DNA from: Escherichia phage GADS24
Strand: one strand, 5' to 3'
Sequence record: OQ703618.1
DNA length: 64,000 bases
Numbering within the stretch: the stretch's first letter is position 1; every line of letters starts with the position of its first letter. A model generated the notes under the pieces. It saw only the letters and a program-made list of their open reading frames with translations, did no database searches and was not told the DNA's origin. A program made the translations under genes and the position numbers. Shown here in pieces: positions 4,053-13,871 of the stretch.

Positions 4053-4278
4053 CTCGGTCCCATGATTTGGACATTAATTCGGACATAAATTCTTCAATGC
4101 GCGTTTCTTTAGATGGACTTTCACTATCAGATATTTGGACCATATAATCAGAAATAGGTCGGAACATATCCAAGTCGCTTTCTAAATCTTCTTTGATTTT
4201 CTCTTCTGACGTTCCGGTATCATAGGAATACAGATAAGAATCACATGATTCTGATTTAATGTAAATTGCTATACTCAT
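4042..4278 (-). CDS. hypothetical small acidic protein
   Basis: ORF track 4042..4293; likely start at ATG overlapping upstream TGA (ATGA) with AGGAA SD. Confidence 0.4.
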   Translation of the reverse strand: MSIAIYIKSESCDSYLYSYDTGTSEEKIKEDLESDLDMFRPISDYMVQISDSESPSKETRIEEFMSELMSKSWDRDDE

Positions 4279-4766
4279 CTCAAATTCCTGCATTCGGTAA
4301 TAAAACGTTCAACTTCATTATTCTTGGCTTTTATCTTGTCTTTACGTTCCTGTAAACTACTTTTAATAAGACTAATAATGATGCCTATAGTACCTCCACC
4401 AATAATACCACCAACAACACTTATGATACTAGATGCTAATAAGATAGCGATAATATCAACAAAACCGAAAGAACTCACCTTAGTACTAAAAAACCATACC
4501 GACGGTACAAATATAATCCATCCTGTTATCCATTGGCACTTATTGAAAAACTTTTCAAGCTCAGCTTGAGTTGTTCGTATTACTTCATCGATAGGTTGAT
4601 ATCCATTAATGTATCTGTTCACGATAATACCTGCTGGCTGGTCGATTTTAAATTCTTGGCAAATACGTTTCACTAAGTAGGATGGACATCCTGTCCAATC
4701 TACTGAATAGTATGAAATACCTTCATTGCCATCGTCTATATTAGACCAATATGTTTTGTTAATCAT
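4275..4766 (-). CDS. hypothetical membrane protein with C-terminal FIxECR tail
   Basis: Hydrophobic, Gly-rich C-terminal half; ends ...ERFITECRNLR; start overlaps upstream stop (TAATG). Confidence 0.5.
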   Translation of the reverse strand: MINKTYWSNIDDGNEGISYYSVDWTGCPSYLVKRICQEFKIDQPAGIIVNRYINGYQPIDEVIRTTQAELEKFFNKCQWITGWIIFVPSVWFFSTKVSSFGFVDIIAILLASSIISVVGGIIGGGTIGIIISLIKSSLQERKDKIKAKNNEVERFITECRNLR

Positions 4767-5452
4767 TACCAGCCTTCCATAGGGAATTCCAGATAAACTT
4801 GAGCATTGACACGAATTTCATTGGTAATCTTTTTAACTCGGTCTGTATTACGAGATACACGTCCGAACCAACGCCACCCATTACTAATTGCACGAGAACC
4901 AGTGTGCCATGTTTGCCAATCAAACTGAAGAAGAGTACGATCTGGAGCTTCCCATTTCTCTAGTTCACCTTTTTCAATTTTTTCGAGGACTTCTTTGTGC
5001 CACTGACGATAGATAAGTTCGCCATCAGGAATCTGACTGAACTCTGCAGTTCCTGTTGCAAAATGAGTAGGACACACGTCAGCGTTAACAAGACCAAGAA
5101 TATGTTCAGAATGGTAACGAGGGTTATCATAATCAGGTTGTCCTGCAGTAATAAAGTGTTGACCAACCGGAATATCCGGTCGTGGTACATCATCATGGTG
5201 ATAACCTGGGATAGCAGGGTACCAACCAGGCATCAGCATGTGGACTCGTGAATCAAATACAACCTGGTCGGTGTTCCAATCATCTGGCAAGTTCATGATG
5301 AAGCTGCGAGTAATAGGACCACCATTATTATAAGCAAATTCTAAACTACAGTTGAAGAACATAGGCTCGTTTTTAATCTGGTCATTTTTAATCGCGTGAG
5401 CAAAACCACCTACTGCACGAGCTTGACTATTAAACACTTTAGAACTATTCAT
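4766..5452 (-). CDS. hypothetical protein, His/Asp-rich (possible metal-binding)
   Basis: 228-aa ORF containing GYHHDD...H...H; GAGG SD. Confidence 0.5.
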   Translation of the reverse strand: MNSSKVFNSQARAVGGFAHAIKNDQIKNEPMFFNCSLEFAYNNGGPITRSFIMNLPDDWNTDQVVFDSRVHMLMPGWYPAIPGYHHDDVPRPDIPVGQHFITAGQPDYDNPRYHSEHILGLVNADVCPTHFATGTAEFSQIPDGELIYRQWHKEVLEKIEKGELEKWEAPDRTLLQFDWQTWHTGSRAISNGWRWFGRVSRNTDRVKKITNEIRVNAQVYLEFPMEGW

Positions 5453-5453
5453 A

Positions 5454-5759
5454 TTATTTTCCTCGACATTCTTTAATGAAATTTTCTAGATTGGTAGATT
5501 CAATAGCTTTTTTACGAGCTTCTGCGTGTTCTTCTTCGGACAATTTACGTTTATAATTGACCCAGACATTATGGTCGAAACCAGACGTGGCATATAATAA
5601 CAAAGCTCCGACGAATAATAAAAACGGTGATAAGAATACAAAACCAGGAACACCATCCATATCGTAAGCCTTTTGTAATACTGCAACAGAAAGAGATGCG
5701 TAAAAAGGTGATGCAAGTATTGTTAAAAGACCGATTCGATTGGTTTCTGTTAATTTCAT
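5454..5759 (-). CDS. hypothetical membrane protein with C-terminal ENFIKECR tail
   Basis: Two predicted TM segments; ends ...LENFIKECRGK; CATGAGGAGAATATT-ATG RBS; promoter/stem-loop cassette upstream. Confidence 0.5.
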   Translation of the reverse strand: MKLTETNRIGLLTILASPFYASLSVAVLQKAYDMDGVPGFVFLSPFLLFVGALLLYATSGFDHNVWVNYKRKLSEEEHAEARKKAIESTNLENFIKECRGK

Positions 5760-5826
5760 AATATTCTCCTCATGTTTTAATAGGACTACTATAACATAGT
5801 CCTATAATTGTGTAAACAGTTTTGTG
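5760..5826 (-). promoter_or_regulatory. PeSL-like early promoter/stem-loop cassette
   Basis: Minus strand: GTTTAC (rc 5812-5817), 18 nt, TATAGT; 8-bp perfect inverted repeat TAGGACTA (5781-5788)/TAGTCCTA (5798-5805); conserved RBS CATGAGGAGAATATTATG. Confidence 0.55.
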
Positions 5827-5829
5827 AAG

Positions 5830-6786
5830 TTATTTGAAAGGTTTTACCATATGGAAATTTTGTTTGAAACGTTTGACGTAATCGTCATGTCCTAAGCTTT
5901 GGTACATACTTACTACTTTGCTGTAGTTTTCCCAGGCATACTCACGGAACCAGCCGGAGGTTATGCTTGTGCAGACTTTTTCTAATGCCATCATAAAACT
6001 GGCTTCAGGGTTAATTTTAAAGTCATTAGGAATCTGAGAACGTTCTAATGCTAGTACACATGATTCTTCATATACACCGGCCAATTTGACCATTTCTGGT
6101 AATGATTCGAACTTCTCGCGTGAGGTCATGACTTCAGAACCGTCTTTCATATAAAATGTATACGCTGGCCGGTCTGTTAGTGCAATGGCTTCATGAATAG
6201 TATCATGGTCATATGTATAGATGTCATCTTTAAAGAACGCACTTTTAGAAGTGTCAAGAACTGGGTGAGCATAGTTCAAGGTTTCTTTCTGGCGTTTCAG
6301 CATAATTTCAGTAAGTTCATCGTTCAGTGTAACACCTTTACCACGAAGATACTGAATATGGTTCATAGTCTTTAAAAAGAATGGATTATTTTTCTTGAAA
6401 CGATGAGACATCTTAATTGCAAGACATATCTCAGGAGTTGCCCAATAAAACCCGGTCAAACGATCTTTAGTCAAATTTTTCTTGGCGTATTTTAAAAGGT
6501 CATAAGAAGACGTGAAATCTTCAGGAGTGAGTTCACCTACTAATTCGCGGACATTAGTGATTGCCGGAACAATATATGCTTCAAAATGAGTTTCGCGTCC
6601 ATTATGGAAGCATTTGAAAACTTGGACATCAGGGTTATCTTGATGAACATATACACCCATCATTTGATTTTTGAATGCATTCCAAGAACCTTGGTCTGCA
6701 ATAAAGTCCCAGTCACTATTTTTGATAGCGTTAGAATCAATAAGACCATGATAGTGAAGTGCACGAGAACCAATAACTAACATCAT
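5830..6786 (-). CDS. hypothetical protein with nucleotidyltransferase-fold-like N-terminus
   Basis: 318 aa; N-terminus LVIGSRALHYHGLIDSNAIKNSDWDFIAD resembles the hG[GS]...[DE]h[DE]h pol-beta NTase signature; GAGGAAAATATT-ATG RBS. Confidence 0.5.
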   Translation of the reverse strand: MMLVIGSRALHYHGLIDSNAIKNSDWDFIADQGSWNAFKNQMMGVYVHQDNPDVQVFKCFHNGRETHFEAYIVPAITNVRELVGELTPEDFTSSYDLLKYAKKNLTKDRLTGFYWATPEICLAIKMSHRFKKNNPFFLKTMNHIQYLRGKGVTLNDELTEIMLKRQKETLNYAHPVLDTSKSAFFKDDIYTYDHDTIHEAIALTDRPAYTFYMKDGSEVMTSREKFESLPEMVKLAGVYEESCVLALERSQIPNDFKINPEASFMMALEKVCTSITSGWFREYAWENYSKVVSMYQSLGHDDYVKRFKQNFHMVKPFK

Positions 6787-6814: not shown

Positions 6815-7054
6815 TTAAATTTCACGACATGCGATATTATATTCATCCCAGAGGTCATCATGTGAAGCCTCTACCAATGGAACGATTGTACCATTTATGT
6901 CTTCATTATAAGGGCAAATTGTGCAGTGTGCATCTTCAAATCGGATGCCTTTGTGTTCAGATTTTTTATAACGCATATCGAATATCTTTGCAAACTTTTC
7001 ACGAGTAATGGTTTTACCAACCACTTTAGTTCCTATACTTTCATAATAAATCAT
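6815..7054 (-). CDS. hypothetical protein
   Basis: ORF track 6815..7066; start likely at MIYY ATG with GGAG SD. Confidence 0.4.
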   Translation of the reverse strand: MIYYESIGTKVVGKTITREKFAKIFDMRYKKSEHKGIRFEDAHCTICPYNEDINGTIVPLVEASHDDLWDEYNIACREI

Positions 7055-7066
7055 TGTGGACTCCAT

Positions 7067-7116
7067 TTAATTTGATAGGACTACTATAACATAGCCCTAT
7101 CTTGTTGTAAACTGTT
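7067..7116 (-). promoter_or_regulatory. PeSL-like early promoter/stem-loop cassette
   Basis: TGATAGGACTACTATAACATAG core shared with cassette at 5781; GTTTAC (rc 7107-7112); imperfect stem TAGGACTA/TAGCCCTA. Confidence 0.5.
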
Positions 7117-7314
7117 TTAGCAAGAATAACTAGACGATACCCAGCCTTGAACAGTGATACTATTGTTGGATAATGAGATCGCGTTCTGGAGATTCAGACC
7201 TGCGTTATCTTCAATCCATAATGTAACTTCTTCGCGTTCTTCTGTTGCAATTTGGAACAGGTTTTCCAGAGCAGCTACTGCCGTACGTACAGCACAATCT
7301 AATTCACGAGACAT
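7117..7314 (-). CDS. small protein, GW[VI][SA]SS..C paralogue family member
   Basis: Ends ...QGWVSSSYSC; similar to the next two ORFs. Confidence 0.45.
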   Translation of the reverse strand: MSRELDCAVRTAVAALENLFQIATEEREEVTLWIEDNAGLNLQNAISLSNNSITVQGWVSSSYSC

Positions 7315-7323
7315 ATGATTTCC

Positions 7324-7596
7324 TTAGCAAGTGTGAGAAGATGCAATCCAACCACCAGTTTCGAGGCTCAGGTTGTAGTCGTATTGGTAAACGTCGGCCC
7401 ATTCAGCATAGCCGTTTTTTGTACAACGTTCAAGATCGGCTTTAAGCTGTCCGGGTGAATGATAAGTTCCACCCATACCATAAGCTGGATACAAGTCGAA
7501 TGTTGTGTTTTGTTTATCAGCGATTTCTTTGGCAGCCTCAATAGCTGCATAGATTTTTGCTACAGCTTCAGCCAGTTCGGTTTGTTCTTTAGACAT
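7324..7596 (-). CDS. small protein, GW[VI][SA]SS..C paralogue family member
   Basis: Ends ...GGWIASSHTC; junction TGCTAAGGAAATCATATG. Confidence 0.5.
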   Translation of the reverse strand: MSKEQTELAEAVAKIYAAIEAAKEIADKQNTTFDLYPAYGMGGTYHSPGQLKADLERCTKNGYAEWADVYQYDYNLSLETGGWIASSHTC

Positions 7597-7605
7597 AATG
7601 ATTCC

Positions 7606-7911
7606 TTAGCACAAAGCAGAAGACGAAACCCAAGCACCTTCAGTAATAACGTAACCATTACCTTCACGCTTAACATCGCCACCATTATTTTCAATTTCAT
7701 TTTTCATCCACTGGGATACGATTTCACCCTTAGGATAATAAGTACGACCGCTACCATAATCACCTACAGAAAATGATACGGCATATTGGTCTGCGATCTT
7801 TGTTGCTTCTTCTTCGATACGTTCAGCTTGATTCAGAAGTTTATAAATTGCATCTGAAGCGGATTTGGCATCGTTAAACTCTGGTACTTTAATTTCAATA
7901 ATCTTACTCAT
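7606..7911 (-). CDS. small protein, GW[VI][SA]SS..C paralogue family member
   Basis: Ends ...GAWVSSSALC; start overlaps upstream stop (ATGA). Confidence 0.5.
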   Translation of the reverse strand: MSKIIEIKVPEFNDAKSASDAIYKLLNQAERIEEEATKIADQYAVSFSVGDYGSGRTYYPKGEIVSQWMKNEIENNGGDVKREGNGYVITEGAWVSSSALC

Positions 7912-8267
7912 TTTCTACATTCCTTAATAAAGTTTTCGATTGTTTCATTTTCACGTTTAGCTAAAAGTTCATTATAACTAACCATTTGAGAAGCGTAAAC
8001 CTTTTTATTTTTCTTGTTATGGTTTATAAAATCGTAGTAAAAATAGACTACAGTACAAAATGATGCGATGGATGCAAAGGCTTGGGTATACCGTAAGTCC
8101 TGCCATTGGTCTGTGAATCCACCAGTGTTCCCTATAAATCCTAACACAACGCCGTCAATAAGAAATCCAACTAATCCAAAGGCAAATCCCATGCCAATAC
8201 TCATAATAAAAATTAGAATGTTCTCACCAAGAGAAGGCCGTACGGTTAAGAGTTGAGGCTTTTGCAT
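7908..8267 (-). CDS. hypothetical membrane protein with C-terminal ENFIKECR tail
   Basis: Hydrophobic N-terminal half; ends ...IENFIKECRK. Confidence 0.5.
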   Translation of the reverse strand: MQKPQLLTVRPSLGENILIFIMSIGMGFAFGLVGFLIDGVVLGFIGNTGGFTDQWQDLRYTQAFASIASFCTVVYFYYDFINHNKKNKKVYASQMVSYNELLAKRENETIENFIKECRK

Positions 8268-8641
8268 CTTATTTCCTTAACGAATTCCATAGCTTCTTCG
8301 TATTCATACTTTTTAACAGCTTCATTATACTGAGCTTGGGCTTTTGCGCACTGAACTTTCCATTCTCTTAATCTGGCTCTGTGATGTCGTCCTTGGTACC
8401 AATATCCCACCCAGTTAATAGGCATTAATAAAAATGGTACAATAAACGACCCGGGTATAATAAGTAAAAACACTGCATCAGACGATATAACTCCACTAGA
8501 ATCTAAAACAGCTCCTATAATCATAAAGATTAAAAATGCTAAAGCTAAAATAGGGCCAAACAACACTTCATTAGGAATTAATTTACGTTTGTATTCGTAT
8601 GCCCAGGGCTTAATTGGCATGTACAGGGTTGGCTTTGACAT
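8246..8641 (-). CDS. hypothetical membrane protein
   Basis: ORF track 8246..8671; start moved to ATG 8639-8641 (MSKPTLY) with GGAATGTAGAGAAT SD region; hydrophobic core; ends ...EFVKEIRCKSLNS. Confidence 0.45.
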   Translation of the reverse strand: MSKPTLYMPIKPWAYEYKRKLIPNEVLFGPILALAFLIFMIIGAVLDSSGVISSDAVFLLIIPGSFIVPFLLMPINWVGYWYQGRHHRARLREWKVQCAKAQAQYNEAVKKYEYEEAMEFVKEIRCKSLNS

Positions 8642-9215
8642 ATTCTCTACATTCCATAATAAATTGCTCAAGGATTAAATTGTTAGTGAAATTAGGACTA
8701 ACAACCATGGTTTCATAAAGCGCATCAATAGCACTTAAAGCATCAACTCTCTTAAGCAAAGGCTTGCCTTCATACATAGTTTCAGAATCGACGATTAATG
8801 TAAAGTAATATTTTTTATTATCGACTAGAACTTCAGTATCGATATAAAACATGTTAGACCTTAAAAGCTTATCTCTAAAGCCTATGTAATCATCTGAACG
8901 TTCGCTGATATATTCCCATTCAGTGTTTAAACAACAAACAGACCATGTAGGAGCAACGAAATCAGTAAATCTAATATCATGGTCTGCAACTAGTTTAGCA
9001 ATAGCTCCGATATCATGAATCATAATACCTGGGGCTAATAAAGATTTTCGGTTATTTGCATATTCAGTTGTCTCATAAGAAGACGACCAGTACCATTTAC
9101 GTCCAGTTGCAACATATCGTAATGAATCAACTAAAGACGTAGGTGGATTTACCTTATTTCGGAACTCTTCGAACATTGAGTCAATATCATTATTTTGGTT
9201 TCGCATGTTAACTCC
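8610..9215 (-). CDS. hypothetical protein
   Basis: ORF track 8610..9227; start moved to ATG 9213-9215 with AAGGAG SD; C-terminal region contains EQFIMECR. Confidence 0.5.
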   Translation of the reverse strand, partial: GVNMRNQNNDIDSMFEEFRNKVNPPTSLVDSLRYVATGRKWYWSSSYETTEYANNRKSLLAPGIMIHDIGAIAKLVADHDIRFTDFVAPTWSVCCLNTEWEYISERSDDYIGFRDKLLRSNMFYIDTEVLVDNKKYYFTLIVDSETMYEGKPLLKRVDALSAIDALYETMVVSPNFTNNLILEQFIMECREYVKANPVHAN

Positions 9216-13822: not shown

Positions 13823-13871
13823 TTGTTTTGATAGGACTACTATAACATAATCCTATCAGCATGTAAACTAC
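13823..13871 (-). promoter_or_regulatory. PeSL-like early promoter/stem-loop cassette
   Basis: GTTTAC (rc 13863-13868), 17 nt, TTATAG; TGATAGGACTACTATAACATAATCCTATC inverted repeat. Confidence 0.5.

Follow-up and report, generated by a model that had tools for sequence, protein, structure and literature searches.

A predicted nucleotidyltransferase of an RB69-like phage and the family of small Cys-tailed proteins encoded beside it

The 64,000-nucleotide (nt) stretch of Escherichia phage GADS24 DNA analysed here (OQ703618.1; hereafter the window) is that of an RB69-like Mosigvirus, and at 5830-6786 it carries a gene whose product had been singled out in a first-pass annotation as a possible nucleotidyltransferase (NTase). 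In this study, we report that the gene is supported, by conserved residues and a structural model, as encoding a Pol-beta-fold NTase with an intact catalytic triad, and that across phage lineages it is linked to one family of small acidic proteins with a conserved C-terminal tail, the serines of which the enzyme possibly modifies. The NTase and these Cys-tailed proteins are best described as a previously undescribed, widely conserved phage module. The enzyme family, which has no assigned function, comprises at least 1,606 clusters at 50% identity and occurs in 733 sequenced phages and some giant viruses. Its near-obligate pairing turns a 'hypothetical protein' into a directly testable two-component system.

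Linkage to small proteins with a Cys tail

The genes concerned, all on the minus strand, are as follows.

5830..6786, minus strand: NTase-like gene, ortholog of RB69ORF134c; 318 amino acids (aa), DUF7277 + DUF7275
7606..7911, minus strand: Cys-tail small protein 1; 101 aa, isoelectric point (pI) 4.7, ends WVSSSALC-stop, phrog_899
7324..7596, minus strand: Cys-tail small protein 2; 90 aa, pI 4.7, ends WIASSHTC-stop, phrog_899
7117..7314, minus strand: Cys-tail small protein 3; 65 aa, pI 4.1, ends WVSSSYSC-stop, phrog_4882
6815..7066, minus strand: 83-aa open reading frame (ORF), RB69ORF135c, phrog_3723; between the tail genes and the NTase gene

The ORF of the NTase gene runs from 6786 to 5830 with an ATG start and a GAGGAAA Shine-Dalgarno sequence 8 nt upstream; the 318-aa frame proposed earlier, for which no strand had been given, is real. 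The protein begins MMLVIGSRALHYHGLIDSNAIKNSDWDFIAD. At the DNA level the gene is 97% identical to RB69ORF134c (NP_861824.1, 'hypothetical protein'). Pfam searches placed DUF7277 at aa 2-101 (1e-27) and DUF7275 at aa 120-305 (5e-79), and the PHROG of the protein is phrog_2141, function unknown. Searches of NCBIfam, PADLOC and PDB sequences with the protein returned nothing usable. Literature searches for DUF7277/DUF7275 and the RB69 locus names found no paper that mentions them, and those for Cys-terminal phage proteins and Mosigvirus accessory genes gave nothing relevant. Assigned to two Pfam DUFs and to a PHROG without a known function, and not treated in any paper found, the enzyme is uncharacterised, as had been surmised; one Acinetobacter phage record already labels a homologue 'putative nucleotidyltransferase'.

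The strongest clue lies in the three Cys-tail genes, which the first-pass annotation had overlooked. They are arranged in tandem upstream of the NTase gene on the same strand, and among the ORFs in all six frames of the 64 kb they are the only ones with a W-x-x-S-S-x-x-C-stop end (0.03 expected from shuffled sequences).

Between lineages, the annotated neighbours of the NTase gene differ completely. An all-against-all comparison of the ORFs of 11 loci revealed one other shared family, namely the small proteins encoded directly upstream on the same strand. The sample for the linkage analysis consisted of 90 loci in total (~1.75 Mb), 80 of them fetched additionally from viral contigs, with enzyme identities of 39-97%. 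Tails were scored in a strict form (W-x-x-S-S-x-x-C-stop) and a relaxed form (W-x(1,2)-S-S-x(0,3)-C-stop), and the zone was defined as the 3 kb upstream of the enzyme gene on the same strand. At least one strict tail was present in the zone at 80 of the 90 loci. Altogether 165 of 171 strict tails fell inside the zone, which makes up 7.9% of the strand-bases and was expected to contain 13.5; with relaxed spacing the figures rose to 84/90 loci and 228/237 tails. The strict motif occurred in 1 to 4 copies per locus, for a single enzyme.

Dereplication (enzyme <70% identity) left 47 lineages, the neighbours of which were clustered by similarity without use of the motif. The small-protein family was recovered in 39 of them and the next most conserved neighbour in 10; the neighbour clusters of the 47 lineages contained no third conserved component such as a decarboxylase, lyase, protease or exporter. 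The linkage is seen in Straboviridae, Stephanstirmvirinae and Otagovirus as well as in unclassified metagenomic phages, and tblastn located the small proteins in the same phage taxa as the enzyme.

Nearly all of the unique tail proteins (150/155) form one BLAST-connected family. They are acidic (median pI 4.4) and share a layout consisting of an amphipathic helix ending in [IL]-A-[DE]-x(2,3)-h-x-F, an acidic variable linker and the tail, often with a Y-G-(M/S)-G-(G/R)-x-Y loop. Mean identity is about 25%, and only the W, S, S and C of the tail are invariant; the spacing from Ser to Cys varies from 0 to 3 residues. No Pfam domain or structural match was found for the tail proteins, and they are unnamed in any source. 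An AlphaFold2 model of the 90-aa protein (predicted local distance difference test, pLDDT, 89.6) showed a compact helix/beta-hairpin fold, in which W83 is part of a short strand, and by structure search this partner is not a HEPN RNase.

One apparent natural fusion of the two components was found. The 377-aa metagenomic protein P0236 is built like the small proteins over its first ~80 residues, which contain the two tail-like motifs ...YWDNSGC... and ...QWNSSGGPAC and are followed immediately by the NTase start, LLIGSGALEH. P0236 could be a real fusion or the product of a lost stop codon.

In one lineage, represented by the metagenomic viral contigs L051, L052, L055 and L079, the Cys-tail genes lie about +4.8 to +6.8 kb downstream of the NTase gene on the opposite strand, so that the linkage can survive rearrangement. 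The protein concerned is 139-147 aa long and ends in WCSSSMEC, and in L051 and L079, which were checked, there is an additional 65-aa protein ending in ...YW[DE]DSGC.

In RB69 itself (NC_004928) the first Cys-tail gene, a single intact 101-aa gene in the window and in most relatives, is split into 7875-8090 (RB69ORF139c) and 8080-8181 (ORF138c). ORF139c ends ...SQWYEK and the overlapping ORF ends ...WVSSPALC, with an S-to-P change in the tail; a frameshift pseudogene or a sequencing error would account for the split.

The 83-aa ORF is probably co-transcribed with the NTase gene. It is kept in only 5 of the 47 lineages and its membership in the module is uncertain; the idea that it is a degenerate tail protein was rejected (hhalign probability 0.1%).

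Fold and conserved residues of the enzyme

The NTase protein consists of two domains, placed on the window as follows.

6475..6786, minus strand: N-terminal Pol-beta-type NTase core, residues 1-104; from invariant columns, predicted secondary structure and fold matches
6766-6771, 6706-6714 and 6580-6582, minus strand: G6 S7, D25 + D27 and E69, respectively
5833..6474, minus strand: C-terminal all-helical domain, residues 105-318 (DUF7275); from alignment, model and fold search

An alignment of 54 sequences, down to ~45% identity, showed G6, S7, A9, D25, D27 and E69 to be invariant, and G6, S7, D25 and D27 were still invariant when 22 sequences down to ~21% identity were aligned. The AlphaFold2 model built on the 54-sequence alignment had a pLDDT of 92.5 and a predicted template modelling score (pTM) of 0.87. 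In this model, the hG[GS] motif V4-I5-G6-S7 lies between strand 2-5 and helix 7-12 (strand 1/helix 1), the metal-binding pair [DE]h[DE]h (D25-W-D27-F) is located at the start of strand 26-31 (strand 2), and the third carboxylate, h[DE]h (F68-E69-A70), is in strand 64-73 (strand 5). As modelled, the placement of the GS, D-x-D and E69 elements is the arrangement of Pol-beta nucleotidyltransferases. The model resembled the following solved NTases, given with the match score.

MenT1 (8AN4): 10.0
ANT(2'') (4XJE): 8.6
TglT/MenT3 (6J7N): 8.5
MenT4 (6Y56): 7.7
TM1012 (2EWR): 7.6
LnuA (4WH5): 7.1

At the sequence level, no NTase family of Pfam (NTP_transf, AbiEii, Polbeta and others) was common to the 54 members at E = 10, and phmmer and profile searches of the PDB, with the full-length protein and the N-terminal domain including distant members, found no solved NTase. 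The assignment as an NTase therefore stands on fold and motif, not on sequence similarity. The GS...D-x-D signature noticed in the first pass exceeds chance and consists of invariant residues in a predicted Pol-beta-type fold, and structure prediction, for which a non-NTase fold had been named as a refutation, gave an NTase fold.

Conservation extends through DUF7275. Across the 54 sequences K125, H128, R165, E168, Y172, H174, H194, D195 and H198 are invariant, as are E240, E241, C243, E248, R249, K270, C272 and S274-R281. Beyond the first helices of the domain, fold search found no close solved relative. The strong conservation of His, Asp, Glu and Cys residues suggests either elaborate recognition of the tail or a second chemical step. 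The enzyme family is slightly acidic rather than basic (median pI 6.1).

The first-pass annotation had also read the sequence RFKQNFH near the C-terminus as an R-x5-H motif of the HEPN type. The spacing is indeed present, at residues 306-312, but in relatives R306 is replaced by L or K and H312 by D, E or Y, and no HEPN helical fold was found in the model; a HEPN C-terminus was rejected on these two grounds. Likewise, no CD-NTase or cGAS-like fold or family and no defence or counter-defence profile matched the protein. We consider it very improbable that the protein is MNT-HEPN-like or CD-NTase-like and acts either in disturbing defence by nucleotide signalling (CBASS, Thoeris) or in modifying the nucleic acid of the phage. 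In favour of this view, the NTase core is genuine, and the gene is apparently early and lies in a variable accessory region of the kind typical of counter-defence genes. The HEPN/CD-NTase interpretation is nevertheless contradicted by the variable R306 and H312 and by a PADLOC search without a match, and it would leave the linked Cys-tailed proteins unexplained. As for nucleic-acid modification, no link was found for RB69, whose published cytosine-modification pathway consists of other genes, gp48, gp52:53, gp55 and gp159, without the NTase gene; a role of the enzyme in cytosine hypermodification was accordingly rejected (PMC13326640).

What the enzyme may act on

Nucleotidylylation of the tail serines is the simplest reading of the module because the catalytic triad is intact, the solved relatives of the fold transfer a nucleoside monophosphate (NMP) to a hydroxyl, the tail is the only constant feature of the neighbours, and up to four such neighbours accompany each enzyme. 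We put it forward tentatively, with somewhat less than an even chance of being correct. In the proposed mechanism, the NTase would bind a nucleoside triphosphate with Mg2+ via G6/S7, D25, D27 and E69, the C-terminal domain would hold the partner tail G-x-W-x-x-S-S-x-x-C-COOH, and one of the hydroxyls in the invariant Ser-Ser pair would receive the NMP; a single enzyme would serve 1-4 diverged paralogous partners. The apparent early transcription and the location in a hyperplastic region suggest that the modified small proteins would act on the host, in takeover or in counter-defence. The tail as substrate, Ser as acceptor, the choice of nucleotide and the biological role are what we infer from the linkage, the tail motif and the fold. 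If the enzyme does modify its neighbours, this would be a new kind of phage post-translational chemistry, and the small proteins would probably form a class of early effectors not seen before, directed at the host, in phages that are widely used for therapy (Mosigvirus, Dhakavirus, Phapecoctavirus, and Acinetobacter and Aeromonas T4-likes).

Among NTases acting on a neighbouring protein, MntA-HepT (MNT-HEPN), in which a minimal NTase poly-adenylylates a Tyr of the partner protein, is the nearest precedent. The enzyme studied here is likewise of the minimal-NTase type and encoded beside a protein partner, which would be the target of its covalent modification. It differs in several respects: its partner is no HEPN RNase, the HEPN-like motif in the enzyme itself is spurious, the acceptor would be a Ser-Ser pair located in a C-terminal tail, there are several partners, and the setting is a lytic phage.

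A short distant subfamily of the enzyme (248-263 aa), found in Gordonia, Streptomyces and Vibrio phages, bears on the same proposal. It keeps the N-terminal G[ST]...D-x-D together with the K-x-S-H, H-D-x-x-H, REE and ALER motifs, and has no tail genes upstream at its loci in these phages; the partnership with tail proteins is therefore a trait of the main family, phrog_2141. The tail-less enzymes also lack the E69-bearing strands and both invariant Cys residues (C243, C272), which argues for modification of the tail by the main family. At these loci an ORF of ~100 aa follows each short-subfamily gene (L091 4100-4393, L092 4094-4393, L093 4114-4422), overlapping or abutting it in the two actinophages and lying 10 nt downstream in the Vibrio phage; it may be a different conserved partner.

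Several observations weigh against tail-serine nucleotidylylation. Gene linkage indicates a functional relationship, not an enzyme-substrate one, and as the 90 loci are phylogenetically related, the count over 47 lineages is a safer measure of it than a binomial P-value. Three loci (L003, L032/CC31-like and L082) have the enzyme without a detectable tail ORF. The 90-aa partner, as modelled, has its tail packed in part on its own core, with a pLDDT of 76 for the final block, so that the tail is not obviously a free peptide. Finally, the substrates of the closest solved structures are tRNA 3' ends or small molecules and not proteins.

The main alternative is a MenT/AbiEii-like RNA NTase that extends or blocks the 3' ends of host tRNAs or other RNAs during takeover, with the Cys-tailed proteins as regulators; the tail could dock in the active site in the manner of an antitoxin, or the proteins could be adaptors whose variable middle part selects the target. 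We regard this as possible but on the doubtful side. MenT1, MenT3 and MenT4 are among the best structural matches, and MenT toxins are tRNA NTases that transfer NMP to the tRNA 3'-OH (PMC7450476, PMC10435456). They share with the present enzyme a bilobed form, in which an N-terminal Pol-beta NTase core is joined to a helical C-lobe. The small genes directly upstream, on the same strand and tightly linked, recall the small antitoxin MenA1, whose gene lies upstream of that for MenT1 and which blocks the MenT1 active site (PMC10435456). The invariant K125 (K-M-S-H-R) follows D25/D27 by ~98-100 residues, which is comparable with the distance from D41 to K137, the motif III Lys, in MenT1, although this is linear spacing only. 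By the same linear measure there is no invariant Asp ~15 residues after K125, at the motif IV spacing of MenT1 D152; the invariants near residue 140 are K139 and T140, and D193/D195 could substitute in three dimensions.

Further evidence speaks against the RNA NTase. None of the 54 members matched the AbiEii/DUF1814 profile (PF08843) at E values up to 10, profiles found no solved NTase, and ~150 residues of the C-terminal domain are unique to this family and extremely conserved. A slightly acidic enzyme is unusual among those that bind RNA. The family is viral and not a bacterial toxin-antitoxin module, being nearly absent where such modules live (5 loci in metagenome-assembled genomes/185,579 species). 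Neither an AbiEi/MenA-type antitoxin nor a bacterial toxin-antitoxin context was found, the upstream proteins having no Pfam or structural match; instead of the 1:1 pairs of toxin and antitoxin, one enzyme is accompanied by 1-4 paralogous partners with a W-x-x-S-S-x-x-C terminus and a fold unlike any antitoxin. Should the enzyme be a regulated MenT-like RNA NTase after all, this would be the first case of a virus employing such toxin chemistry.

In yet another view, the protein would work alone as an O-nucleotidyltransferase for small molecules, of the ANT(2'')/Lnu type, inactivating or making a metabolite, and the Cys-tailed proteins would be functionally unrelated passengers of the same hyperplastic region. 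This we judge improbable. The tail-less distant subfamily and the three main-family loci without tails would fit it. However, the linkage is too specific for passengers, with 165/171 tails in the 3 kb zone across lineages, and P0236 appears to be a natural fusion. ANT(2'')-Ia (4XJE) and LnuA (4WH5), which act on antibiotic hydroxyls, share with the mechanism proposed above the transfer of NMP to a substrate hydroxyl held by a helical C-terminal domain. The enzyme is unrelated in sequence to ANT(2'')-Ia and LnuA and about twice their size, and it is linked to protein partners, whereas they stand alone. It has no resistance context, and no antibiotic-resistance or metabolite-pathway genes were conserved near it in the 47 lineages.

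Modification of the tail serines could also be the first step of a longer pathway resembling that of peptides made by ribosomes and modified after translation (RiPPs). Lanthipeptide/AviCys RiPPs include epidermin-like S-x-x-C-COOH termini, whose spacing yields C-terminal thioether rings, and class III-V lanthipeptides activate the hydroxyl by phosphorylation before elimination. By analogy, the NTase would O-nucleotidylylate the tail Ser and DUF7275 would then act with the terminal Cys, for example by elimination to dehydroalanine and thioether ring closure or by another C-terminal crosslink. The products would be early, fast-diversifying small effectors bearing a modified C-terminal warhead against host targets or defences. 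We think such a maturation unlikely. The layout is that of a RiPP cluster, in that 1-4 diverged precursor-like genes with Ser and Cys in a conserved C-terminus directly adjoin one enzyme gene on its upstream side, and the Ser-Ser-x-x-Cys at the very C-terminus has the S(-4)-x-x-C(-1)-COOH spacing. The putative precursors, however, are folded proteins of 60-150 aa in which the Ser-to-Cys spacing varies. No homolog of LanB, LanM, LanKC, LanL, LanC or LanD, and no protease or exporter, was present or conserved according to Pfam searches with the enzyme and the neighbour clusters of the 47 lineages, and literature searches found no precedent for dehydration driven by an NTase.

Distribution, promoters and surrounding genes

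A word-indexed search found more than 2,200 clusters of the NTase family at 90% identity, and the figure of at least 1,606 clusters at 50% identity comes from an exhaustive profile search. Nearly all of the best 150 relatives are ~300 aa long with the identical two-domain layout. The tblastn search was positive for 733 of 50,697 phage records, comprising Mosigvirus, other Straboviridae (of Escherichia, Klebsiella, Enterobacter, Yersinia, Aeromonas and Acinetobacter), Phapecoctavirus and Pseudomonas Otagovirus. A Foldseek search against viral models revealed DUF7275 proteins also in giant viruses. Among bacteria and archaea (one genome per species, 185,579 species) only five NTase loci were found, all in metagenome-assembled genomes; the family is essentially viral. 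The giant-virus matches in BFVD, A0A3G5AJ90 (Sylvanvirus, 508 aa) and A0A3G5AE53 (Satyrvirus, 571 aa), are labelled DUF7275-containing; they matched the whole NTase model (template modelling score ~0.7) and are 200-250 residues longer.

In T4 the syntenic stretch nudE, e.2, e.3, e.4 has no insert, while RB69 and the window have ORF132c-ORF139c inserted between e.2 and e.3. A scan of 25 kb of the T4 genome found no counterpart of the NTase gene at the e.2-e.3 junction, in line with the first-pass remark that no such gene was familiar from T4 here. T4 (NC_000866) does encode a 336-aa protein annotated 'nucleotidyltransferase', NrdC.11 (L094 436-1446), with the signature FGSHLYG...SDVDF. Like the NTase, it is a T-even accessory protein of similar size with a GS...D-x-D signature, but NrdC.11 is unrelated in sequence (BLASTP E = 2.4), lies at another locus and has no Cys-tail genes nearby, and it was rejected as an ortholog.

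Four promoter elements were located, three of them copies of one sequence.

7971..7999, minus strand: sigma-70/T4-early-like promoter, GTTTACG, 17 nt spacer, TATAAT; upstream of the three tail genes
7075..7112, minus strand: promoter-hairpin element, GTTTACA / TATAGT (promoter-early-stem-loop, PeSL, like); upstream of the 83-aa ORF and the NTase gene
5780..5817, minus strand: second promoter-hairpin copy; just downstream of the NTase stop, bounds the cassette
13831-13868, minus strand: third promoter-hairpin copy

The 38-nt element reads GTTTACA-N5-ATAGGRCTATGTTATAGTAGTCCTAT; a perfect hairpin, ATAGGACTA / TAGTCCTAT, is embedded in what looks like a promoter of the early type. None of its three copies in the window would be expected by chance, and the copies at 5780-5817 and 7075-7112 bracket the cassette of the 83-aa ORF and the NTase gene. 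PeSL cassettes have been described in the hyperplastic regions of T4-type phages (PMC2839356, PMC4122927), and the 38-nt elements look like these mobile regulatory cassettes. Judging from the promoter sequences, the NTase and tail genes are presumably expressed early.

The RB69ORF132c homolog (4766-5452, minus strand, 228 aa) lies within the insert between e.2 and e.3 relative to T4. It is conserved, matches phrog_1843 (E 7e-97) but no Pfam family, and contains the stretch ...IPGYHHDDVPRP....

Four predicted membrane proteins are encoded on the minus strand at 4275-4766, 5454-5759, 7908-8267 and 8246-8671, and are homologs of T4/RB69 e.2, ORF133c, e.3 and e.4. They end in ...ENFIKECRK, ...ENFIKECRGK, ...RFITECRNLR and ...FVKEIRCKSLNS; this second set of paralogs whose C-terminus is conserved and contains Cys flanks the block of NTase and Cys-tail genes on both sides.

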